A stretch of DNA of 7,632 nucleotides from a virus, in IMG/VR virus record IMGVR_UViG_3300029397_000005, positions 1-7,632 of that record. One strand, 5' to 3'. The notes below the pieces were generated by a model that searched no databases, was not told the DNA's origin, and worked only from the letters and a program-made list of their open reading frames with translations. Position numbers and translations under genes: made by a program. Positions 1-7,632 of this stretch are shown here, in pieces. The number at the start of each line of letters is the position of its first letter. The first letter of the stretch is position 1.

Positions 1-95
1 CTGCGCATGCATTCGTGGCAGCGATGCTCGAAGACCTAGATGACTCCGATAACGAGGACGAAAAAAAAGCCGCAGACGGCTTGAAGGCCATGCTT
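1..95. repeat. Terminal direct repeat, copy 1; circular-assembly overlap, exact duplicate of 7538..7632
   Basis: A base-by-base comparison of 1-95 (ctgcgcatgcattcgtggcagcg...gaaggccatgctt) with 7538-7632 shows identity. The repeat touches both window ends, and an ORF runs through it in frame. Confidence 0.95.
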
Positions 96-251
96 GCAGC
101 TTTTCCTAACGACTGGCGGAGGCTGTACCAAACGGACAGACTTCGATGGACTTCAAGAGCGGTAATCAGGCTTTGTCTTTTTATAGACAAGGCGCTTCAC
201 CACGGAGTCAGATACCCCAAAGCGCTGGGCAACTCCCTTCAGCGTGTATAG
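1..251 (+). CDS. C-terminal continuation of the HTH repressor candidate (same frame as track ORF 15..251); 1-95 duplicates 7538-7632
   Basis: Position 15 corresponds to 7552, and 7552 - 7357 = 195, which is in frame. The first in-frame stop is at 249-251. The tail from 153 to 251 is antisense to the recombinase 3' end, so the functional length of the tail is uncertain. Confidence 0.6.
   Translation, partial: AHAFVAAMLEDLDDSDNEDEKKAADGLKAMLAAFPNDWRRLYQTDRLRWTSRAVIRLCLFIDKALHHGVRYPKALGNSLQRV
61..83 (-). terminator. Rho-independent terminator for the rep-recombinase transcript (a duplicate copy sits at 7598..7620)
   Basis: The minus strand reads AAGCCG-TCTG-CGGCTT followed by a T tract (the plus strand has A8 at 61-68). 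This is a 6-bp GC-rich stem with a 4-nt loop, about 70 nt downstream of the recombinase stop at 153. The plus-strand sense has no T tract after the stem. Confidence 0.65.
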
Positions 252-725
252 GCCCGTAGCGTAGGCATCCACAATCGCAACCGCCGTTGCAGCATCCACA
301 GACAACGCACGACCGCAGTGCACACCCCGGGCCATGGCTTCCTTCTGACCAGCCATGCAACGCTCACGGATTAACGACCGCTCGAATTCAGCCATAGCGC
401 CAAGAATTTGAAGCATCAAGCGCCCAGTCGGCGTAGTCGTATCGATAGGCTCAGTCAGAGACCGAATGCAAGCGCCTGCGCGCTCTACACGGTCGAGAAT
501 CTTGAGCAAGTCGGAGAGCGATCGCGCAACGCGATCGAGCTTGTAGAAAACGAAATGATCCCCCGTTTTTAGTGACGCAAGGCACTGACGGAGCACAGGC
601 CGATCAAACTTCGCGCCGCTAGCCTTCTCTTCAAAAATCACCTGAACGCCAGCAGCATGCATTGCCGCAATCTGCACTGCCGTATCTTGCTCTTGAGTAC
701 TTACACGGGCATATCCAACCAGCAT
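153..725 (-). CDS. Small serine recombinase (resolvase/invertase family), probable integrase/excisionase of the phage
   Basis: The N terminus MLVGYARVSTQEQD carries the catalytic-Ser motif YARVST. The length of 190 aa fits the family. A C-terminal HTH is present (TLKGVAQRFGVSDSVVKRLV). The SD AGAGGGA lies 5 nt upstream of the ATG. Confidence 0.9.
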   Translation of the reverse strand: MLVGYARVSTQEQDTAVQIAAMHAAGVQVIFEEKASGAKFDRPVLRQCLASLKTGDHFVFYKLDRVARSLSDLLKILDRVERAGACIRSLTEPIDTTTPTGRLMLQILGAMAEFERSLIRERCMAGQKEAMARGVHCGRALSVDAATAVAIVDAYATGLYTLKGVAQRFGVSDSVVKRLVYKKTKPDYRS

Positions 726-730
726 CTAAA

Positions 731-760
731 TCCCTCTCTGTTTCGATAGAGAGAGTCTCT
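731..760 (-). promoter_or_regulatory. CT/AG repeat element overlapping the recombinase ribosome-binding site; possible SD-sequestering hairpin or protein-binding site
   Basis: The mRNA sense is AGAGA-C-TCTCTCT-ATCGAAAC-AGAGAGGGA-TTTAG-ATG. TCTCTC (753-748) can pair with AGAGAG (739-734) of the SD, giving a 6-bp stem with an 8-nt loop. An upstream AGAGA could compete only weakly. Confidence 0.3.
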
Positions 761-795
761 TTGATGCCGAAAATTCCCAAGCTTCAATGAGATAG

Positions 796-818
796 ATTGC
801 TATAGCTTTTATAGCGAT
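796..818. promoter_or_regulatory. AT-rich imperfect dyad between rep and the recombinase; candidate recombination (attP/res-like) or operator site
   Basis: The sequence is ATTGCTATAgctttTATAGCGAT. The core GCTATA (799-804) and TATAGC (810-815) are perfect, and the flanks extend the dyad to 8 of 11 matches per arm. This is the only strong dyad in the 130-bp rep-recombinase spacer. Confidence 0.3.
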
Positions 819-855
819 TCTGCCAGGCGCAAATCTCTTCAGAATCACTTGCAGG

Positions 856-1794
856 CTAATGGAGCATTTCAGCCGGCATGGGCTCAGTCACCAGCCAATA
901 CCGAGCTTCTCCGAAGCGTTCCAGGGTCAGGCGATGGGAAACGATGATTTCATCCTCTGCACACTGAAAAGTCATCTCGATCATGTCTTGAAGGGATGCA
1001 CCCCAAATGCGGATTTTTTCGGCCTTCGGCATGGAGGCAATGCCGTTCTTTGAATCACTACGGCTGTAGCGATCAGAACCCTTTGGAGCGTCCGCATAGT
1101 CCTTGGTGATGTACTTAGACACGTAAGCCGCGATTTTCGCGATAGAGCGCTGTTTAACGCGTCCTTGAGGGGTCTTGCGACCACCGACGAAGCACAGGCC
1201 GTTGTCACTACCGACGATGGAGCGCCACACCTTAGTCCCCAGCTCCCAGCCCTTCACCTTGACGTCCTTGTGAACCGCGTGCTTTGGCAGCTTGTGGCAA
1301 GCGATGTGCACATGCATTGCCCCACGGTCTTGACGCTCAAAACTGGCGCAGTAGACGAACCGTCCACCGAGAGCGCTCTTCATACGGCGCACCCATTCCT
1401 TGAAGTGCTTTTTGCACAGATTTCGGTCTGTCTGATTTGCCCGATAGGTCAGCGTCAGAAGCTCATTCAAGCCATTGGCTTTGATGAACCAGCGGCATTT
1501 AGCTTTGGCGTTCTGAGCATTCTTTTTCATCTGCTTGTCACGCTTAGCCTCTGCCTCCTCCTCTAGCTCTTTTTCCCGCCAGGCGCGTTCCTCACCATCC
1601 CACTGTGAGAGATAGGCTTCAGCATCAAACGGAGGAGGGGCGAGCTTGTCGGTTTCCGACCAAGTGACGGCGTTACGGAAAGAGATTTCCCGATGGCCGT
1701 TGACGTTCTTTACATACACGTCCCAAGCGTCCTCATGGACTTCGCCTTGAATGACTATGCGTTCCCCCGTAGGGGCAGTTATGATTCTCTCCAT
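856..1794 (-). CDS. HUH-superfamily rolling-circle replication initiator (gII-analogue, two-tyrosine type)
   Basis: Motif I is LLTLTY, the HUH motif is MHVHIACH, and motif III is AAYVSKYITKD, with two Tyr residues 3 apart as in phiX174 gpA (YVAKY). A GGAG SD lies 8 nt upstream of the ATG at 1794. Confidence 0.85.
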   Translation of the reverse strand: MERIITAPTGERIVIQGEVHEDAWDVYVKNVNGHREISFRNAVTWSETDKLAPPPFDAEAYLSQWDGEERAWREKELEEEAEAKRDKQMKKNAQNAKAKCRWFIKANGLNELLTLTYRANQTDRNLCKKHFKEWVRRMKSALGGRFVYCASFERQDRGAMHVHIACHKLPKHAVHKDVKVKGWELGTKVWRSIVGSDNGLCFVGGRKTPQGRVKQRSIAKIAAYVSKYITKDYADAPKGSDRYSRSDSKNGIASMPKAEKIRIWGASLQDMIEMTFQCAEDEIIVSHRLTLERFGEARYWLVTEPMPAEMLH

Positions 1795-1825
1795 TGCAGC
1801 TACTCCGATTAGTTGCAGTCACGAG

Positions 1826-1863
1826 TCCCGAACAGTTCCACCTGTTGCGGGGCTCTTTTTTTT
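1826..1863 (+). terminator. Plus-strand intrinsic-terminator-like hairpin plus T8 tract, facing the rep start codon
   Basis: CCCGAACAG (1827-1835), a TTCCAC loop, then CTGTTgCGGG (1842-1851) form a 9-bp stem with one bulge. This is followed by gctc and T8 (1856-1863). The minus-strand sense has no U tract after the stem. Confidence 0.5.
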
Positions 1864-1916
1864 CTACGATCCAGCCATGCGCCGAGTGGCAATCACTCGC
1901 TGTGTTCCAAAGTTAA

Positions 1917-2141
1917 CTATGAATAAATTAGCCGTGCGCTGCGCGCACGGCTGCCCGTCCGCTTCGCCAGCCGTGCAGCCGTTGCGCTCAGCATTTCGGC
2001 CATGTTTTTCAACGCGACCTGCGGCCGCAGCTTTTCGAGCTGGACAGGCTTGAGCAGATCCGCCAGCCGCAAACAGGCAAGGGCGATTCGCCGCACCTGC
2101 GGCGACCGGGCTTTGGCCCTTCGGGTTGAGCCTTGTCCCAA
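1917..2141 (-). CDS. Hypothetical 74-aa protein, or a shorter form from an internal start; predicted helical and basic
   Basis: My hand-counted codon-position GC is about 66/55/70 % (GC3 > GC1 > GC2), with CTG/GCG/AAG/CAG-type codons like the other phage genes. The peptide RRIALACLRLADLLKPVQLEKLRPQVALKNMAEMLSATAARLAKR looks protein-like. Against this, the start is TTG, the SD is poor, and I recognise no family. Confidence 0.3.
   Translation of the reverse strand: MGQGSTRRAKARSPQVRRIALACLRLADLLKPVQLEKLRPQVALKNMAEMLSATAARLAKRTGSRARSARLIYS
1930..1952 (-). other. Strong 10-bp GC stem-loop next to an AT-rich island; candidate minus-strand terminator and/or origin or packaging hairpin
   Basis: AGCCGTGCGC-TGC-GCGCACGGCT is a perfect inverted repeat. 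On the minus strand it is followed by AATTTATTCATAGTTAAC (1929-1912), the only AT-rich patch in the region. Confidence 0.4.
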
Positions 2142-2328
2142 GTCTCAATCGGCACAGAGGCCGACTAGCAATCCCTATCGCAGACATCCAGACACCCATA
2201 GTCAGAGTGCCTGCGGCACTGGTAGCGCTCGCCGCGCGGCGTCCGCTGCCCGTCGAGCATCGCGCCCAGCACCGTTCCCCAGAGTTCTCGCCTCTACGGC
2301 CTACGCTAAGCCAGGAGCGGCCTGCGGC
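2018..2328 (+). repeat. Dispersed 8-mer CCTGCGGC x4 (starts 2018, 2096, 2210, 2321), each at or near the centre of a local palindrome
   Basis: Exact copies were found by eye, all in one orientation, and none elsewhere in the window on either strand. The contexts are CTGCGGCCGCAG (2019-2030), TCGCCGCAccTGCGGCGA (2088-2105), AGTGCCtgcGGCACT (2206-2220) and GGCCtgcGGCC (2319-2329). Confidence 0.7.
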
Positions 2329-2529
2329 CTTTGGTTTTCTCCGGGGGTATTCATAAAGCTTCGCTTTACAAAGCTTCCCCACTCCGAAAACCAATCCCGG
2401 CAACGCTAAAGGCACGGCGAGGAACTCAGGGGAACGGTGCAAGCAAGGGACAGCTACACGGGCAGCAGACAGATAACGACCCGGCTCCAAATCTAGGGGC
2501 CCGGTACACCAGAAAGGCAGGGGCGGCAC
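2142..2529. other. Non-coding gap between the divergent orphan ORFs; GC palindromes, then a purine-rich leader. Probable cis-acting region (origin, packaging signal or promoters).
   Basis: Stops interrupt every protein-like frame. A 12-bp palindrome CGCCGCGCGGCG lies at 2230-2241. AAGCTT occurs twice (2356-2361 and 2371-2376). GGGCCC lies at 2497-2502. The plus strand is A+G rich from about 2385 to 2529. Confidence 0.5.
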
Positions 2530-2814
2530 ATGGCGATAGCAGCAAATTTCAGGAAGTATGCAGAGGCGATGGCTTTGCAGCTGGTGCTGCCCTTCGGGAA
2601 GCCCGTGTGGAATGGCAAGCGCCCGACGACGACTCTCGGCCGTGCTTTCCGCGCCTACATCACCGCCGCGATGAAGGCCCGGGGCCTGATTGAGCACCCT
2701 GTAGCCCCCGCAGTGCCTCAGTGGTGGAAAGATGCCCAGAGCGCCGCCCGTAAATTCGCCCGCGCCCTGAAAAGCGATCAGAACGCGATTCATTGGAATA
2801 CCGACCTGACCTGA
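2530..2814 (+). CDS. Hypothetical basic, Trp-rich 94-aa protein on the strand opposite to the morphogenesis operon
   Basis: GC3 is about 73 % by hand count (69 of 94 codons), with CTG/GCC/AAG/TTC/ATC preferred codons. The composition is non-repetitive. AGGGG lies 8 nt upstream of the ATG. The 3' end overlaps the zot-like 3' end by 25 nt in convergent orientation. I recognise no family. Confidence 0.5.
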   Translation: MAIAANFRKYAEAMALQLVLPFGKPVWNGKRPTTTLGRAFRAYITAAMKARGLIEHPVAPAVPQWWKDAQSAARKFARALKSDQNAIHWNTDLT

Positions 2815-3938
2815 GCATTACGCGCCGCAAGCCCTTGCGTGTAGGAGTCCTGAGGCATTGGAGCTGGACGCTCTTTTGGCTCGGGCATGGGCACGGTCTG
2901 AGGCACAACAGGCTGCACTGACGCGAGCTGAGCCGTGACTGCCGGTTTCTCTTGCCGCTGCTGCTGCATATCGGCGTTGGGCCTTTTGAAGTCGACAAAG
3001 AAACCACGCTTGACGATCAGCATGCATGTGGCTTCATCCATTGTCATCAGCGTGGCTTGCTGGGTGTAGCACCGGCACTCATTGCGCATCGTCACGCATG
3101 CCGCCGGATAGGGCACCTCAACAGGCTGCGCGACCTGGTCATAGGCCGGGGCTGTGTGAGGAAACCCAGCGATGCGTGCAGTGCGACTTTGCACGTACTC
3201 ATAAGGCGTCACCGCACGCGTTCTAGCGGCATCTGATGCGGACGCAGCACCCGGCTTTGCCGCAGACGTTTCCGCAGCTTGTGGCGCGCCCTTGGTGACG
3301 TTTTTATAGACGCCCGTGATGGCCAGATAGCCCATGATCGGCACGAGCACGACCGTGGCCAGAACCGTCCACACGGCACGCGGAATTTTCTTCTTACCGG
3401 TATGCAGACTGGCGCTTTTGTACCAGCCGTAAACCTCTTTGGGGAAGCCCACCATGGTGACCGTGCCGGACTTGCCGCTACCGCTTTTTTCGCAGTTCGG
3501 ATTGACGGCTTCCCACTCGATACAGCTCACCAGGTCAGCACCGAACGTGCGCTTCAAGTGACGGTGCCAGCCCGGAGAGCCCACCAGTCGCCGCACGAAG
3601 TTATCGAGGTTCTGAGGGTGTTGCGTGACCAGGTAGAAATCCATGCCGCGCCTGCGATGCTCAGCGAGCATTCGGACCTCCTCAGGAACCGCCGCGCCAC
3701 TGCCGCGCACGGGCAAATCGTTATGGCATTCATCGATCAAGAAGATCGTGCCGTCCGGCTCTTTTTGCCAATCCTTGAAGTCGATTTTTTTCCAGCTCGA
3801 AAGCTCACCACCGGGCACAGGCTCAAACCGCCCGTTATGACACACAGGACGGTTTTCCTTAAGGCTGCGCTCACGTACCCATTTGAGCGTGTTGAGAGTC
3901 TTCCCAGCGCCATTAGCGCCCGTAATCAGGTGCAGCAT
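2790..3938 (-). CDS. Zot/pI-family inovirus assembly ATPase
   Basis: Walker A is GANGAGKT at the N terminus and Walker B is FLIDECH. A central TM segment AVWTVLATVVLVPIMGYLAITGV is followed by a periplasmic tail. The gene sits immediately after the pVI-like gene, with a 1-nt gap. Confidence 0.92.
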   Translation of the reverse strand: MLHLITGANGAGKTLNTLKWVRERSLKENRPVCHNGRFEPVPGGELSSWKKIDFKDWQKEPDGTIFLIDECHNDLPVRGSGAAVPEEVRMLAEHRRRGMDFYLVTQHPQNLDNFVRRLVGSPGWHRHLKRTFGADLVSCIEWEAVNPNCEKSGSGKSGTVTMVGFPKEVYGWYKSASLHTGKKKIPRAVWTVLATVVLVPIMGYLAITGVYKNVTKGAPQAAETSAAKPGAASASDAARTRAVTPYEYVQSRTARIAGFPHTAPAYDQVAQPVEVPYPAACVTMRNECRCYTQQATLMTMDEATCMLIVKRGFFVDFKRPNADMQQQRQEKPAVTAQLASVQPVVPQTVPMPEPKERPAPMPQDSYTQGLAARNAQVRSVFQ

Positions 3939-3939
3939 G

Positions 3940-4236
3940 TCACACCCTCCTCAGGCGCTTGACGACCCCACCAAGGCCCGACAAACCCATGCGAACAGCA
4001 ACCGCTGATGCAATGATGCTGATGCAAACACCGACCTTCATATAACCAAGCATTGCCACCAAATCAGGCGGCAACCCCATCAGAGCAGCGATCGCATCAG
4101 CCTTGAGCTTGCTCAAAACCGTATCGACACCCGTGTAGCTGACAACAGTCAGGCCCAAAGCAATGAGCACCCGGCCAACCAATGACCCAGCAACGTTTAA
4201 TAAACCACCGAGCAGGGACGCGATAATCACGGGCAT
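3940..4236 (-). CDS. pVI-like minor coat / membrane protein (98 aa)
   Basis: The protein has multiple hydrophobic segments and a basic C terminus (KRLRRV). It lies between the pIII-like and pI-like genes. A strong SD AGGAGG lies 6 nt upstream of the ATG, with its 3' bases overlapping the pIII stop codon. Confidence 0.75.
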   Translation of the reverse strand: MPVIIASLLGGLLNVAGSLVGRVLIALGLTVVSYTGVDTVLSKLKADAIAALMGLPPDLVAMLGYMKVGVCISIIASAVAVRMGLSGLGGVVKRLRRV

Positions 4237-4239
4237 TTT

Positions 4240-5676
4240 TTAGTCCTCCTTTGACGGTCCTGAAACGATGCGGAAGGCCGCCAGCGAGCACACTGCGACG
4301 AGCACCCAGCCGAGATAGCCAAGCGACGGACAGATGTTGCTGAACGGCAAAGAGACGCTAGTCCTCCAAACTTGGACATTCAGGTCTGCGATGCAGCGAC
4401 CACCACCTAAAACGTCCTCAGAGCTGAGCTTCCCTGCGACGTCCACTTCAGTGTTTCCAGGCAGGTCTTTGGTCACATCACGGTCTGAACCTTTAGCGAC
4501 CTCAGAGCCATATAGCTGAGACTCAGAAGTCTTGTCATCAAACATCTGGCAGTTGCGCTTGTGCTGATCTCTCGCGATAGCGCACTGGAGCGCGTCACCC
4601 TCACACGCAAAGCCGGCCTCACACGACCCACCAAAACTACCGCCTTTACCGTCCTTTTCCCCATTAGCAGAGCTATTGCATTGCGCAGAATTCGCATTCG
4701 ACTTGCAGTAGTCTTCTTTGCTTTGCACAACCGTGGAGCTATTGATAACGGTGGAAGAACCACCGCCGCTTGGCGTGCTTGTGGTGGTCTTTTCCGTGGT
4801 GCATGTATTGCCCTGGCAGGTGGTTTTTTCGCTCACCTTGTCAGTACTGCCATCCTTGTTCTTGGTCTCAGTGTTCTTCTCACTTTTGACTACGTTCGTA
4901 CCCTCGTCCTTTACGCAGACCTCAACGCCGTTTACCTCACCACCAAAACCACCAGGGCATTTAGGCGGATCGAGACAAACACGTCCGCCAGGACTGCTTT
5001 CACTTGAGGCATAACCGGCCTTGCTGCACTTTTCCTCAACTGTCGTGCCGTCCCCTGGCGTAGCAGCAGGAACCTCACAGGCCTTACCTTGAGTCGTGCC
5101 AGGCGGACCCTGATACATGCCCAAACGTCCGTAAGTCTGCTTAGTTCCACCAGGCATGGTGACAACCTTGTCCTGCACAAATCTCACGGTGCAGCCGCTA
5201 GATGGCGAGTCGTGTGGCCAGCACATATCACCCGTGGGAACCTCACCGCTCAACACTTGCGAATCAAGCAACTTCCCAGAACCCAACGCAAATCCTGAAA
5301 GGTTGAAATCACCCGCACATTTAGCATCAGGCGTGGTGGTAGCAACGCAGGACCCGTTCTTTTCTGAATAGCCCGAATTGCAGCCGCATTCCTGACCCGC
5401 AAGCGTGGCATTAGCCGGACAGTAGTAGGTTGTTTGCTTGTAAACCGTAGCGTTCGCCATGAGCGGATCCAGGCTGTACGCACACAGCCACTCATAACTA
5501 CTGTTTTGCACAGCCGTGTTTTGGCGCGACTCAACCGCATTACAAGCAGCCTGAGCGGACTCATAAAGAGTCGAGCCAGCTTGCCAACGGTCCCCATACT
5601 TTGCGGGGAACGCGTACGCTGAGACACTGAGCACCAGCAACAGTAAGCCGCAGATCAAGCGGTAAGGATTAGCCAT
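4240..5676 (-). CDS. pIII-like adsorption / minor coat protein (478 aa from the ATG at 5676; the track ORF extends to a TTG at 5736)
   Basis: From the ATG the protein starts with a signal peptide, MANPYRLICGLLLLVLSVSAYA / FPAKY. Cys-rich domains are separated by Gly/Ser/Thr-rich linkers (TTTSTPSGGGSS). A C-terminal membrane anchor is present (LGYLGWVLVAVCSLAAFRIV). The gene follows the major coat gene. Confidence 0.8.
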   Translation of the reverse strand: MANPYRLICGLLLLVLSVSAYAFPAKYGDRWQAGSTLYESAQAACNAVESRQNTAVQNSSYEWLCAYSLDPLMANATVYKQTTYYCPANATLAGQECGCNSGYSEKNGSCVATTTPDAKCAGDFNLSGFALGSGKLLDSQVLSGEVPTGDMCWPHDSPSSGCTVRFVQDKVVTMPGGTKQTYGRLGMYQGPPGTTQGKACEVPAATPGDGTTVEEKCSKAGYASSESSPGGRVCLDPPKCPGGFGGEVNGVEVCVKDEGTNVVKSEKNTETKNKDGSTDKVSEKTTCQGNTCTTEKTTTSTPSGGGSSTVINSSTVVQSKEDYCKSNANSAQCNSSANGEKDGKGGSFGGSCEAGFACEGDALQCAIARDQHKRNCQMFDDKTSESQLYGSEVAKGSDRDVTKDLPGNTEVDVAGKLSSEDVLGGGRCIADLNVQVWRTSVSLPFSNICPSLGYLGWVLVAVCSLAAFRIVSGPSKED

Positions 5677-5754
5677 GCGGCCCCCAGCATTGCGATGATG
5701 ACGAACAGGCCCATGTAACCCCCTCAGCTTTTTCAAAGCACCACCGTTGACGCT

Positions 5755-5786
5755 TTGAGAAAGCCCCGCAGCCGGCCGGTCTGCGG
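5755..5786 (-). terminator. Hairpin with a short U tract just after the major coat gene (attenuating terminator candidate)
   Basis: CCGCAG (5766-5771) pairs with CTGCGG (5781-5786), with an inner CC/GG pair. The minus strand then continues GGCTTTCTCAAAG. The position parallels the terminator after gene VIII in Ff phages. Confidence 0.4.
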
Positions 5787-5799
5787 AGTTAGCTCCCGA

Positions 5800-6012
5800 T
5801 CAGGACAGCGCGGAACGCACCCAGCGGAAGGCCTTCACCCCCACATAGATCAGCAGCACAGCAGCACCGATCAAGCCAATGGGCGCAGCTTGCGCACCGA
5901 TGTCAGTCACGACACCGGCAACATCCACAGCAGCGGCATTAGCAGCCGATGCGGCAGCAACAGCACCAGCGGCAACAGCAGCACGCAGGGCAAGGGTCTT
6001 GGAAGTACGCAT
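5800..6012 (-). CDS. pVIII-like major coat protein precursor (70 aa)
   Basis: A signal peptide ends in ASAANA. The mature part of about 44 aa has an acidic N terminus (AAVDVAGVVTD), a hydrophobic core (IGLIGAAVLLIYVGV) and a basic C terminus (KAFRWVRSALS). The SD GAGGAG lies 7 nt upstream of the ATG. Confidence 0.9.
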   Translation of the reverse strand: MRTSKTLALRAAVAAGAVAAASAANAAAVDVAGVVTDIGAQAAPIGLIGAAVLLIYVGVKAFRWVRSALS

Positions 6013-6017
6013 AGGAA

Positions 6018-6221
6018 TTACTCCTCGTTAGGTTGATTTCCGTCGGTATCTCTGAGCGTCTGAATGAGCACACGAAAGGCCCATCCAGCAGCCCAGACCA
6101 GCAGGACGGCACCGCTGATTGCTGCGCCTTCTTCCGTGGTCAGGTTGAGCACGGGGAAGACAAATTCATGCTGCACGGTGACCGTGCAGGCTTGAGAGCA
6201 TTGAATGACCTGCTCGGTCAC
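6018..6221 (-). CDS. Small membrane protein (67 aa from the GTG at 6221); re-called from track ORF 6018..6374
   Basis: The C-terminal TM segment is AAISGAVLLVWAAGWAFRVLI. The GTG start overlaps the stop of the upstream 35-aa ORF (GTGA). GGTGG lies about 6 nt upstream. The exact start is uncertain. Confidence 0.55.
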   Translation of the reverse strand: MTEQVIQCSQACTVTVQHEFVFPVLNLTTEEGAAISGAVLLVWAAGWAFRVLIQTLRDTDGNQPNEE

Positions 6222-6325
6222 AGAGCACCACCGCAGAGAGGACGCCGAAAAGCGATGATCTGTGCCACGACGCAGAAAGCACTGAGCAGGTGCGCCACCA
6301 GAAGGAGGACTAGCGGCCACGTCAT
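6218..6325 (-). CDS. 35-aa hydrophobic protein, pVII/pIX-like minor coat candidate (not in the ORF track)
   Basis: The hand translation is MTWPLVLLLVAHLLSAFCVVAQIIAFRRPLCGGAL. The SD GGGAG lies 8 nt upstream. The ATG overlaps the stop of the upstream gene (ATGA). GC3 is about 66 % in this frame against about 47 % for the overlapping 118-aa frame. Confidence 0.65.
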   Translation of the reverse strand: MTWPLVLLLVAHLLSAFCVVAQIIAFRRPLCGGAL

Positions 6326-6660
6326 GTAGCACGCTCCCAATCAGCGCGACCACCGCAGGTAACGCAGACGCCACCTACCCACTCGTGAGTCGAGTAGTTT
6401 TCAGTGCAGTAGTGGCCAGGAGGGTCACTAGGGTCAGGGGCACCGGGAGCCGGCAACGGAGCCGCCGAAGAAGCAGCGCGAGCACGAGCAGCCTTGATGC
6501 GCTTATGACGGTCAACCAAGTAGCCGATACCTGAAACCATCCCAAGCCCGGATGCTTGGATCAAGTCCCAGATAACAGCACCCACCAAACCACCCAGCAG
6601 CGCGACGACGATCATCACGCGGATGAAGTGCTCAAACTGTTCAGGGGTGAGCGTGACCAT
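6322..6660 (-). CDS. Membrane protein (112 aa) with a Pro/Ala linker and a C-terminal Cys/His cluster
   Basis: TM segments lie in IRVMIVVALLGGLVGAVIWDLIQASGLGMVSGIGYLV. A basic stretch follows, then the linker APLPAPGAPDPSDPP, then HYCTENYSTHEWVGGVCVTCGG. Codon usage is coding-like. The gene starts 2 nt after the ssb stop. Confidence 0.7.
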   Translation of the reverse strand: MVTLTPEQFEHFIRVMIVVALLGGLVGAVIWDLIQASGLGMVSGIGYLVDRHKRIKAARARAASSAAPLPAPGAPDPSDPPGHYCTENYSTHEWVGGVCVTCGGRADWERAT

Positions 6661-6662
6661 GA

Positions 6663-6968
6663 TCAGCCCTTAGCCTCAGAAGCTTGACGCTCTTGCTTGC
6701 TAGGGATGCGAGTCAGGCCAGTCAGGCGAGATTCGATCTTGCGAGTCTGATAGTGAGCAGCCAGCGTGAACGTGGCTGTGTAGTTGCCCGGCGTGAGATT
6801 GCCAATCATGTCCTTAGGCACATCCAGGACGCCGACCTGCGACACCTGACCGTCAGCATCAATCAAGATGCACTCGGCCTCTTGCATCGTCCAATTTTTG
6901 CCGTTCTTGCCAACCCCGGAACGGGAGTCATTGACCTTGAGAATTTGAACTACGGATGAATGCTGCAT
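6663..6968 (-). CDS. gV-like ssDNA-binding protein (101 aa)
   Basis: Size and position are typical for inovirus gV. The sequence is small and beta-rich (ILKVNDSRSGVGKNGKNWTMQEAECILIDADGQVSQVGVLDVP) with an acidic/polar tail. A strong SD GGAGG is present. Confidence 0.7.
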   Translation of the reverse strand: MQHSSVVQILKVNDSRSGVGKNGKNWTMQEAECILIDADGQVSQVGVLDVPKDMIGNLTPGNYTATFTLAAHYQTRKIESRLTGLTRIPSKQERQASEAKG

Positions 6969-7061
6969 ATGGCCTCCTATGGCGTGATATCCCCTGCAGA
7001 TGGGGCACTACGAGCAACAGCGCTCTGAGCTATCCCGCACGCGAGATAGCGCGGAGGGTTG

Positions 7062-7274
7062 TCACGGAAAGCATTCGTTGTTATTCCAAAGGCAATCAGC
7101 GCAGGCGCAGTAGCCCTCGTACGAGGTGTAAGAAAGGCGCTCGCCACACCAAGGGCAAAACCTGAATTTGAGGGTGTCAAAGGTGCCCCCCGCCTGACCG
7201 ACCTCGGCGGGAGCTACCACGCACGCGTCAGCGCTTTCGTGGTCAGCAGGGGGACGTACTTCGGGTGTAGGCAT
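7062..7274 (-). CDS. Small zinc-ribbon protein (70 aa from the ATG at 7274), first gene of the minus-strand operon
   Basis: CPWC...(12 aa)...CACADC gives a four-to-five-Cys ribbon pattern. GGAG lies 7 nt upstream of the ATG at 7274. The track start at 7298 is a TTG inside the operator region. Confidence 0.65.
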   Translation of the reverse strand: MPTPEVRPPADHESADACVVAPAEVGQAGGTFDTLKFRFCPWCGERLSYTSYEGYCACADCLWNNNECFP

Positions 7275-7293
7275 GTGGTAGCTCCATGAGAGA

Positions 7294-7329
7294 ATCAATT
7301 ACCAAATTGATCAATTTATCAATTTGATA
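7294..7329. promoter_or_regulatory. Operator array in the AT-rich divergent control region between the repressor and the structural operon
   Basis: Three nested dyads share the half-site ATCAA/TTGAT. They are ATCAATTaccaAATTGAT (7294-7311), the perfect 12-bp palindrome AATTGATCAATT (7305-7316), and TATCAAtTTGATA (7317-7329). The 7-mer ATCAATT occurs three times (7294, 7310, 7318). Local GC is far below the genome average. Confidence 0.6.
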
Positions 7330-7356
7330 ACTGGATGTTACAAGGAATTTACCAAA

Positions 7357-7632
7357 ATGGCAACAGATGAAGAAATCAGTCTGCTGATCGAGAAAGCCGC
7401 TGAAGCAGCAGGCAGTCAGACGCGACTAGCCGAACTCATAGGGATGCCAAAGAGCCACATCACGCAGATGAAGCAAGGCAAGCGTCATGTGAATTGGAGA
7501 GTGAGAGGGAAGCTTCGCGCTGTACTGGGCGAAGACCCTGCGCATGCATTCGTGGCAGCGATGCTCGAAGACCTAGATGACTCCGATAACGAGGACGAAA
7601 AAAAAGCCGCAGACGGCTTGAAGGCCATGCTT
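7357..7632 (+). CDS. XRE/Cro-CI-type helix-turn-helix repressor candidate, N-terminal part. It runs off the window end and continues at 96..251 on the circle (143 aa in total).
   Basis: Hand translation from the ATG at 7357 gives MATDEEISLLIEKAAEAAGSQTRLAELIGMPKSHITQMKQGKRHVNWRVRGKLRAVLGEDPAHAFVAAMLEDLDD... The segment SQTRLAELIGMPKSHITQMKQGKR is a typical HTH_3 pattern. AAGGA lies 10 nt upstream of the ATG. The gene is divergent from the structural operon across an operator-rich AT region. It is absent from the ORF track only because no stop occurs before the window end. Confidence 0.8.
   Translation, partial: MATDEEISLLIEKAAEAAGSQTRLAELIGMPKSHITQMKQGKRHVNWRVRGKLRAVLGEDPAHAFVAAMLEDLDDSDNEDEKKAADGLKAML
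7538..7632. repeat. Terminal direct repeat, copy 2 (duplicate of 1..95); the unit genome length is 7537 bp
   Basis: Same comparison as for copy 1. 7538 - 1 = 7537 gives the circle size. Confidence 0.95.

Follow-up and report, generated by a model that had tools for sequence, protein, structure and literature searches.

What fills, and what acts in, the oversized gap that sets the replication gene of a filamentous phage apart from its last assembly gene? The question is raised by IMG/VR virus record IMGVR_UViG_3300029397_000005 (positions 1 to 7,632 of that record; hereafter the window, meaning the whole 7,632-nucleotide stretch that was analysed), an inovirus sequence in which 995 nt separate zot from rep. 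A first-pass annotation of this DNA, made from the letters alone, had singled out positions 1795-2529 as oversized, GC-rich and dense in palindromes, and had offered several explanations: the origins and packaging signal of a single-stranded DNA (ssDNA) phage, a large structured RNA, a captured foreign segment, or decayed coding sequence. The excess in size was borne out, although 285 of the 995 nt proved to be a real plus-strand gene (2530-2814), here called orf94. Our analyses reveal that the region comprises two modules with separate histories, and that the control region of this inovirus is itself a mosaic. Its most prominent element is a hairpin of about 230 nt that belongs to a family represented in about a hundred phages that infect Neisseria, Comamonas or their relatives. 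This hairpin most likely starts either second-strand synthesis or packaging.

A long viral-strand hairpin and its conserved tip

The long imperfect hairpin of the viral strand (2241-2470, minus strand) was recognized by folding and by covariation. Its base is formed by pairing of 2241-2253 with 2458-2470, and its main stem by pairing of 2269-2294 with 2414-2440, which includes the inverted-repeat arms 2269-2287 and 2422-2440; a side stem-loop lies at 2319-2329. The viral-strand segment 2255-2455, which covers most of the hairpin, folds at -53.9 kcal/mol with z = -6.75 (DNA parameters), and the viral strand of 1795-2530 as a whole yields z = -5.3. The hexamer TAGCGT occurs in internal loops of the viral strand at 2303-2308 and 2403-2408, and thus is unpaired on both arms. 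The first-pass annotation had noticed the local dyads at 2319-2329 and 2356-2376, both of which are real and belong to this single structure, the second being just one pairing option for the apex. However, the long-range pairings that join them had been overlooked.

Evolutionary conservation of the pairing is extensive. When all 22 hairpins were aligned plainly with MAFFT, RNAalifold recovered the tip alone, and because the stems are too diverged to align across this set, covariation was evaluated in a subgroup of 14 sequences. In that alignment, 94.6% of cells are paired, compared with 40-53% when the partners are slid by one to three columns, and compensatory changes are present in 16 of 41 pairs; none of 500 column shuffles reached the observed values. 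G:T pairs outnumber A:C mismatches by 63 to 10, a count that leans in this direction since the consensus structure was predicted in the zot-sense orientation.

The strand that folds best is consistently the one with the sense of zot. Among 91 distinct hairpins (median span 243 nt, 82 nested pairs), 87 fold more stably on the zot-sense strand, with a mean advantage of 9.2 kcal/mol when the two strands are folded independently with DNA parameters. A smaller, earlier set gave the same preference in 21 of 23 cases (mean 13.9 kcal/mol, RNA parameters). The pentamer TAGCG is present on the viral strand of 26 of the 91 hairpins and on the complement of four. The full hexamer TAGCGT occurs five times in the window, where 2.3 copies would be expected, and 17 of 200 shuffles contain at least that number. 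In inoviruses the gene-sense strand is by convention the packaged one, and we therefore infer that the packaged strand is the zot-sense strand and that the folded strand is the DNA of the virion. This orientation excludes a 5ʹ leader RNA of orf94 and leaves an RNA of zot sense as a minor possibility.

Position is conserved as well. In nearly every locus that contains zot, the hairpin resides on the zot strand, 16-1800 nt downstream of the zot stop codon; this count covers loci with zot on the same contig, four of which are circular wrap-arounds, and L051 is the sole exception. In L051 (Conchiformibius kuhniae) the nearest same-strand zot lies on the other side of the hairpin, at an offset of -1870, and this locus may be a tandem or rearranged prophage.

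The apex (2342-2381, minus strand) reads GGGG-AAGC-TTTGTAAAG-CGAAG-CTTTATGAA-TA-CCCC on the viral strand, with a core motif at 2348-2378. It is nearly invariant (GGAAGCTTTGTAAAG...CTTTAYGAAYRCC), such that, once the 5ʹ half is given, variation in the 3ʹ half-motif is limited to CTTTAYGAAYRCC. The tip varies at just three or four positions in comparisons that span Neisseriaceae, Comamonadaceae and Rhodocyclaceae, while the stems have been fully turned over. The inner stem-loop of the tip differs in sequence and in length (5 to 13 pairs) through paired insertions and compensatory substitutions, but always pairs. A TTGAC-like pentamer recurs just below the tip in the hairpins of Neisseriaceae and Rhodocyclaceae.

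A 38-nt stretch at the tip first matched a salivary inovirus, and an exact-pattern scan located the motif in 21 IMG/VR contigs, with 59 further contigs when only its 5ʹ half was required. The motif is also carried by 21 genomes, all of them from Betaproteobacteria. These are Neisseria (including N. gonorrhoeae), Kingella, Eikenella, Conchiformibius, Vitreoscilla, Snodgrassella, five Comamonas species, Propionivibrio, Azonexus and one Rhodocyclaceae metagenome-assembled genome. In each case the motif caps a long hairpin, and the stems are unrelated between lineages. N. gonorrhoeae carries several filamentous prophages (PMC7561177), and the four chromosomal places at which the motif occurs in this species are most likely these prophages. 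The motif is present in the Neisseria plasmids pJS-B and pNL3.2 as well. The latter (NC_010922.1), a 3.9-kb plasmid of Neisseria lactamica, arose by deletion from a filamentous phage like pJS-B. Most of its assembly genes are gone, whereas rep, a truncated zot (~175 amino acids) and a ~200-nt hairpin of the tip family remain.

An exchangeable cassette beside a Rep-linked core

The hairpin is part of a cassette (~2019-2789) that also contains an array of small hairpins and orf94. The limits of this cassette are revealed by relatives found via Rep (L001-L010). L001 matches the window at 86% DNA identity over 345-2018 and again over 2790-4924, and its Zot and pVI are 93% and 98% identical to those of the window, yet it lacks the cassette. 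Where the window has ~770 nt, L001-L003 carry ~210-240 nt of unrelated sequence between the zot stop codon and ~2018-2031, and homology to these cassette-less relatives ceases at that point. The hairpin motif, approximate matches included, is absent from L001-L010.

Conversely, window positions 2191/2225-2750 recur at 63-83% identity in contigs whose Zot is just 27-48% identical, with similarity starting as early as 2040 in L026 and at 2105 in L014. The hairpin accompanies the HUH Rep in the window and in the Comamonas resistens prophage L062, but other carriers have different Rep families, namely Rep_trans in the C. testosteroni prophage L033 and Neisseria-type Reps elsewhere. The earlier suggestion of a captured foreign segment thus holds in the form of modular exchange, in that ~2019-2789 is missing from the nearest relatives and common to otherwise unrelated inoviruses. 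The right junction of the cassette falls inside the last codons of orf94, where this gene overlaps zot, which fits the highly variable C-termini of orf94 homologues. At the left junction of L062 (8640-8760, corresponding to window ~2019-2085), a 21-nt unit, GTCCAGCTCGTGCTGCTGCAT, is tandemly duplicated, and the window sequence differs there.

The left part of the cassette (2019-2240, minus strand) is an array of small GC-rich hairpins, located at 2019-2030, 2028-2042, 2088-2105, 2108-2119, 2126-2148, 2206-2220 and 2230-2241. Compensatory changes in L026, L014, L013 and L021 support their pairing. For example, the 2206-2220 stem appears as GTGCC/GGCAC, GCGCC/GGCGC, GCAC/GTGC or GGGC/GCCC, the 2088-2105 stem changes from TCGCCGC/GCGGCGA to TTCTTG/CAAGAA, and the 2126-2148 stem from TTGAG/CTCAA to TCAAG/CTTGA.

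The right part of the cassette is orf94 (2530-2814, plus strand), which encodes a small helical protein of 94 amino acids. The gene runs antisense to the phage genes and shares 25 nt with the 3ʹ end of zot. Its start lies ~60 nt beyond the base of the big hairpin, its template is the packaged strand, and the intervening spacer (2471-2529, plus strand) carries a Shine-Dalgarno-like AGGGG 8-9 nt before the ATG. The phase of GC content at third codon positions fits its reading frame, as do substitutions, which number 345, 159 and 119 at codon positions 3, 1 and 2. Homologues number 55 after clustering at 90%, and the family forms 107 clusters at 50% identity; the N-terminus is highly conserved (MAIAANFRKYAEAMALQLVLPFGKP.W...RPTT) and the C-terminus varies freely. 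In every Comamonas-type locus orf94 is situated just beyond the hairpin on the opposite strand, whereas the Neisseriaceae and Rhodocyclaceae loci have none. Profile searches of orf94 against Pfam, PHROGs, NCBIfam, PADLOC and PDB sequences returned no match, and longer members of the family contain no Pfam domain. AlphaFold2 predicted four helices with a predicted local distance difference test score (pLDDT) of 81.7 when 69 sequences were used (66 with 23 sequences), and Foldseek comparison of the model with PDB and BFVD retrieved nothing with an E value below 3. By these profile and structure searches, orf94 represents an unannotated family.

The second module extends from 1795 to ~2018 and is conserved in every phage that carries this Rep family. 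Its hallmark is an AT-rich box (1902-1929, minus strand; viral strand CTAATTTATTCATAGTTAACTTTGGAACAC) that is invariant or nearly so in an alignment of the ten Rep-family relatives; the sequence CTAATTTATTnATAGTTnACTTTGGAACAC (viral strand) is common to 10 of 10, at Rep identities of 44-99%, while the flanks diverge. Abutting this box is a GC-rich hairpin with a 10-bp stem (1930-1952, minus strand; 10 of 11 positions complementary). The sequence of this stem differs in nearly every Rep relative, with variants such as CCGTGCGC/GCGCACGG, CCGGGCGC/GCGCCCGG, CGGGC/GCCCG and GCCCGC/GCGGGC, among others, and its pairing is retained. The box and hairpin follow the Rep lineage rather than the cassette, and for this reason we consider that the module is probably the plus-strand (rolling-circle) origin together with the rep leader, with the AT-rich box as a candidate nick or recognition sequence. 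The remainder of the core (1953-2018), delimited by blastn and by breakpoints in MAFFT alignments, is common to L001 and L002.

Closer to rep, 30 nt upstream of its start codon, folding predicts a bulged hairpin (1823-1835/1842-1855, within 1823-1863); immediately after it, the plus strand has a T8 run, which is A8 on the viral strand. L001-L003 and L062 have kept this hairpin, with a compensatory change from CAG/CTG to CGG/CCG. As plus-strand sequence it resembles an intrinsic terminator directed against the rep leader and ribosome-binding site, and by analogy with rolling-circle plasmids it could mark the end of a short counter-transcript that controls rep. Our scan of 1700-2900 found no promoter for such a transcript.

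With the modules defined, the remaining features that the first-pass annotation had reported can be placed. All ten dyads that it listed exist, although the one given as 1827-1851 is really the offset, bulged hairpin just described. Perfect stems of at least six pairs are more abundant than expected by chance, with seven in 1795-2529 against 2.0 ± 1.45 expected (2 of 200 dinucleotide shuffles reach seven) and four in 2019-2247 against 0.72 (0 of 200 shuffles), whereas counts in the rep, zot and pIII genes are at chance level. GC richness was confirmed but is modest, at 60.5% over 1795-2529 compared with 56.3% for the genome; it peaks at 64.6% over 2019-2247, and the zot gene has 58.7%.

The hint of decayed coding sequence fared less well. 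A phase-specific GC signal is indeed present over 2142-2330 (0.78 compared with 0.57 and 0.63) but is weak: it is reached by 212 of 5,000 shuffles, for a segment that had been selected beforehand, and ranks 87th among 245 sliding windows. Substitutions are fewest in the GC-rich phase (78 versus 129 and 119), which is the opposite of the pattern that a third codon position would show, and the idea is therefore rejected. A 74-codon open reading frame (ORF) that matches the phase signal (o74; 1917-2141, minus strand) is not conserved among relatives and is judged non-coding because it has an in-frame stop in L062, which is 84% identical. Searches of all ORFs of the region with Pfam, PHROGs, NCBIfam and PADLOC found nothing beyond the known genes.

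The window ends in an exact direct repeat of 95 nt (1-95 and 7538-7632), and therefore represents a complete circular genome of 7,537 bp with an arbitrary cut point. Nearly all genes of the inovirus lie on the minus strand: ssb (6968-6663), the major coat protein (6012-5800), a pIII-like protein (5736-4240), a pVI-like protein (4236-3940), Zot/pI (3938-2790), the HUH rolling-circle Rep (1794-856) and a serine recombinase (725-153), of which Zot/pI and Rep were identified with Pfam and PHROGs. Named homologues of Rep are found in Comamonas resistens (87% identity), Delftia, Vandammella and Ramlibacter, and L062, a prophage of C. resistens, aligns collinearly with window 881-2906 (84% DNA identity); the host is therefore Comamonas or a close relative. 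A scan for transfer RNAs and transfer-messenger RNA found none in the window, and megablast of the whole window against phages gave no match.

Two genes outside the control region stand out in the comparison with relatives. The serine recombinase is 99% identical to the copy in L002 and just 52% identical to that in L001, which is the closest relative elsewhere in the genome; in L062, the recombinase gene (10296-10883) is found at the end of the prophage, beside the host gene hrcA. The pIII-like protein (4240-5736) is 53% identical to that of L001, whereas the adjoining pVI and Zot are nearly the same. Its alignment with L002 and L003 extends only from residue ~378 onward, so that the divergence is mostly N-terminal, as expected for a swapped receptor-binding domain.

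Possible functions of the hairpin

We tentatively favour the view that the big hairpin is an exchangeable single-strand (minus-strand) origin of the kind found in plasmids, a proposal that falls somewhat short of being probable and that is built on comparative sequence evidence. The hairpin would form in the packaged single strand, where its duplex stem would be kept free of single-strand-binding protein. The nearly invariant tip would then be recognized by a conserved host enzyme of Betaproteobacteria, and this enzyme would lay the primer that converts the incoming single strand to the double-stranded replicative form, much as the single-strand origins (sso) of rolling-circle plasmids operate. 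Recognition by a host factor, and priming rather than packaging as the outcome, are inferred from two observations. Nearly the same assembly proteins exist without the hairpin in L001, which argues against a protein-specific packaging signal, and a tip that is fixed across phages with proteins less than 30% identical, all within one bacterial class, points to a conserved host enzyme. In addition, the length, single-hairpin form, conserved unpaired motifs and cassette exchange match published descriptions of sso (PMC8860593, PMC4598088), and the mini-replicon pNL3.2 keeps its hairpin. TAGCGT is the CS-6 motif of ssoA origins (PMC4598088), and its presence in the internal loops offers a weak lead in the same direction.

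Several observations weigh against a minus-strand origin. No sigma-70 promoter-like site was detected on either strand of 1700-2900, and matches to -35 and -10 elements on the would-be non-template arm of 41 hairpins are no better than in control arms. Recognition by RNA polymerase of the Ff or Frpo type is therefore unsupported, although the scan used the E. coli consensus and misses the rep promoter too, which makes the absence of promoters weak evidence. TAGCGT is a common hexamer that is found in internal rather than terminal loops, and in one subgroup only. The invariance of the tip is partly due to exact-pattern searching, which the half-motif scan relaxes in part. Moreover, of the structures downstream of the last assembly gene, the hairpin comes first and is the largest, with smaller conserved hairpins beyond it. 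The packaging hairpin of Ff occupies the same position, also with smaller hairpins after it. Packaging signals tolerate sequence change, and so the absence of the hairpin from L001 is compatible with a role in packaging. Sequence alone cannot separate a minus-strand origin from a packaging signal, since both are orientation-specific hairpins of the packaged strand.

The competing explanations draw on much of the same evidence. If the hairpin were the packaging signal, it would protrude from the ssb-coated strand, be bound by minor coat proteins and the Zot/pI ATPase, and start extrusion, leaving the smaller hairpins at 2019-2240 to serve as the minus-strand origin. We consider this unlikely, though a serious contender. 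It accounts for the order of structures, which is that of hairpin A followed by B and C in Ff, for a location only 16-35 nt past the zot stop codon in several Neisseriaceae phages, for strand and orientation specificity without promoter-like features, and for retention of the hairpin in pNL3.2, as Ff miniphages retain their signal. However, the phage L001 shows no trace of the motif despite its near-same Zot, pVI and small proteins, a near-invariant tip is hard to explain through assembly proteins that are only 27-30% identical, and the one packaging signal that is well defined is shorter than the hairpin by a factor of about three. A different role is suggested by orf94, which is templated by packaged DNA in every Comamonas-type locus and has no double-strand promoter upstream that we could find. 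This layout is as described for the Frpo promoter in plasmid leading regions (PMC11541004), and a single-strand promoter of the Frpo/ssi type would recruit RNA polymerase and drive orf94 before a complementary strand exists, with a transcript that might also act as primer. The idea is rather improbable, because none of the 41 hairpins has a -35, -10 or UP mimic above control level, and because all Neisseriaceae and Rhodocyclaceae hairpins lack orf94 and are followed by a gene of viral sense. A variant in which an ssDNA-only promoter and primer is recognized non-canonically, so that it both primes the second strand and gives immediate expression of orf94, is likewise given a low probability on the grounds that promoter elements were not found and that the hairpin exists without orf94. 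If true, it would give filamentous phages an equivalent of the early (‘zygotic’) expression from plasmid leading regions, and orf94 would be an establishment or anti-defence factor.

Action as RNA or as a recombination substrate receives still less support. The best-folding strand has the sense of zot messenger RNA, its advantage is bigger with RNA parameters, and in several phages the hairpin comes directly after the zot stop codon, all of which would suit an element that stabilizes or terminates the zot operon transcript at its 3ʹ end, or an antisense regulatory RNA directed at the leader of orf94. Nevertheless, this is very improbable: no U-run follows the stem, a zot read-through transcript in the window must first cross 285 nt antisense to orf94, and a plain terminator leaves the invariant 30-nt tip unexplained. 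The large structured RNA envisaged by the first-pass annotation likewise found no backing. The folding strand is antisense to orf94, the sole gene beside the big hairpin, and a scan with Rfam 15, in which matches at E <= 1 were listed and a score at or near the gathering score was the standard for acceptance, placed nothing in 2019-2529. Its two sub-threshold matches in the window, Acido-Lenti-1 on the origin hairpin (1919-1950; 21.8 bits, gathering score 37, E = 0.15) and isrG in the alanine-rich part of the coat gene (5929-5983; 23.7 bits, gathering score 100), are regarded as chance. Even less credible, to the point of being nearly dismissed, is a folded single-strand phage attachment site (attP) of the CTXphi kind or a site for the serine recombinase of the phage or, in Neisseria phages, for the IS110-family recombinase. 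A resolvase gene does lie beside the hairpin in L013, L014, L015 and L023, as does an IS110-family gene in L011 and L032, and the attP(+) hairpin of CTXphi is similar in size and forked shape. Yet many hairpin-bearing phages have neither recombinase near the hairpin, no dif-like site occurs within three mismatches, and other loci do not conserve the GAAAACCAA stem, which resembles a hix half-site. Arms and tip are intact inside the prophages L033 and L062, whose ends are elsewhere, with the resolvase beside hrcA, and the hairpin is therefore not a double-stranded attP.

Three further candidates were considered and rejected. An invertible segment with hix-like sites for a phage invertase fails on the same lack of conservation of the GAAAACCAA stem. 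A bridge or seek RNA of IS110 was set aside since an IS110-family gene adjoins the hairpin only in L011, L032 and L041-like loci, and the window and all Comamonas loci lack one. A miniature inverted-repeat transposable element or other repeat is not indicated, as the copies reside in inovirus prophages. In L011 (OR148983.1, salivary inovirus D_HF35_23; 3026-4024), the gene for the IS110-family recombinase terminates 20 nt away from the tip of the hairpin, so that the end of its coding sequence overlaps the 3ʹ arm.

Relation to known systems and implications

The region resembles, in plan, the intergenic region of Ff phages (f1, M13 and fd). In Ff, this region carries the packaging hairpin A, the minus-origin hairpins B and C, and the plus-origin hairpins D and E. 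Both are largely non-coding blocks between the last assembly gene and rep, with ordered, orientation-dependent hairpins on the viral strand and a plus origin, a probable one in the window, beside rep. The region in the window lies between the last morphogenesis gene and rep, which have the same sense, and its packaged-strand hairpins are conserved in pairing. Compensatory changes were found in the big hairpin, in the small hairpins and in the Rep-linked hairpin, and together with packaged-strand specificity and the Ff-like position they support, in kind, the earlier proposal of origins and a packaging signal. There is no sequence similarity to Ff, however. The block in the window comprises ~735 non-coding nt and, embedded with them, an antisense gene, compared with ~0.5 kb in Ff, and its main hairpin is ~230 nt long compared with 78 nt. 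The minus origin of Ff mimics a sigma-70 promoter, whereas no -35/-10 mimic is found here, and the cassette is swapped independently of Rep and of the assembly genes.

The likeness to ssoA and ssoU origins concerns the hairpin itself. These are single long imperfect hairpins of 150-300 nt, a size range that includes the median span of 243 nt in our family, and they act on the displaced or packaged strand in an orientation-specific manner. Shared features also include short conserved unpaired motifs amid variable stems, exchange of cassettes between replicons and limits set by host group. Unlike the hairpin family described here, sso are known in Gram-positive plasmids; the conserved element here is a paired tip of 30 nt. 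In ssoA, CS-6 is located in the terminal loop and an RSB element in the stem; here TAGCGT occupies internal loops, in one subgroup only, and no equivalent of RSB was established. Like Frpo/ssi elements, the hairpin is long, forms on the entering strand and is followed by a gene, orf94, that is templated by this same strand (PMC11541004). However, the -35, -10 and UP mimics of those elements were not found here, and half of the hairpin family is without such a downstream gene. As with attP(+) of CTXphi, a hairpin of ~150-230 nt forms on the packaged strand of a temperate inovirus, but XerC/XerD arms are absent and the hairpin is not split on integration.

Hairpins of the same family, with the same tip, occur just 3ʹ of zot in the Nf/MDA group of Neisseria phages, the NgoPhi prophages, pJS-B and pNL3.2, and in the salivary inoviruses D_HF35_23, D_HF5_49, D_HF3_8 and D_HF3_19. 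These differ from the window in their unrelated stems, in the lack of orf94 and in their Rep, a member of the ‘replication initiation factor’ family; in some of them an IS110-family recombinase takes the place of the serine recombinase. Our search of the open-access literature retrieved no account of this hairpin, nor any published packaging signal, minus-strand origin or stem-loop for the filamentous phages of Neisseria or for inoviruses such as these. What is new is modest but concrete, namely a widespread, unannotated hairpin family with a conserved tip, borne on an exchangeable cassette that here brings along an orphan antisense gene.

The cis-acting signals of filamentous phages have been defined experimentally almost only for Ff. 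With a tip that lends itself to pattern searches, a constant orientation and clear covariation, the hairpin family provides a concrete candidate for such signals in about a hundred betaproteobacterial phages. It also offers a marker of the packaged strand and, for the construction of phagemids in Neisseria or Comamonas, a minimal element that can be tried. In addition, its distribution indicates that the Rep-linked origin core and the hairpin cassette of these phages are inherited separately.

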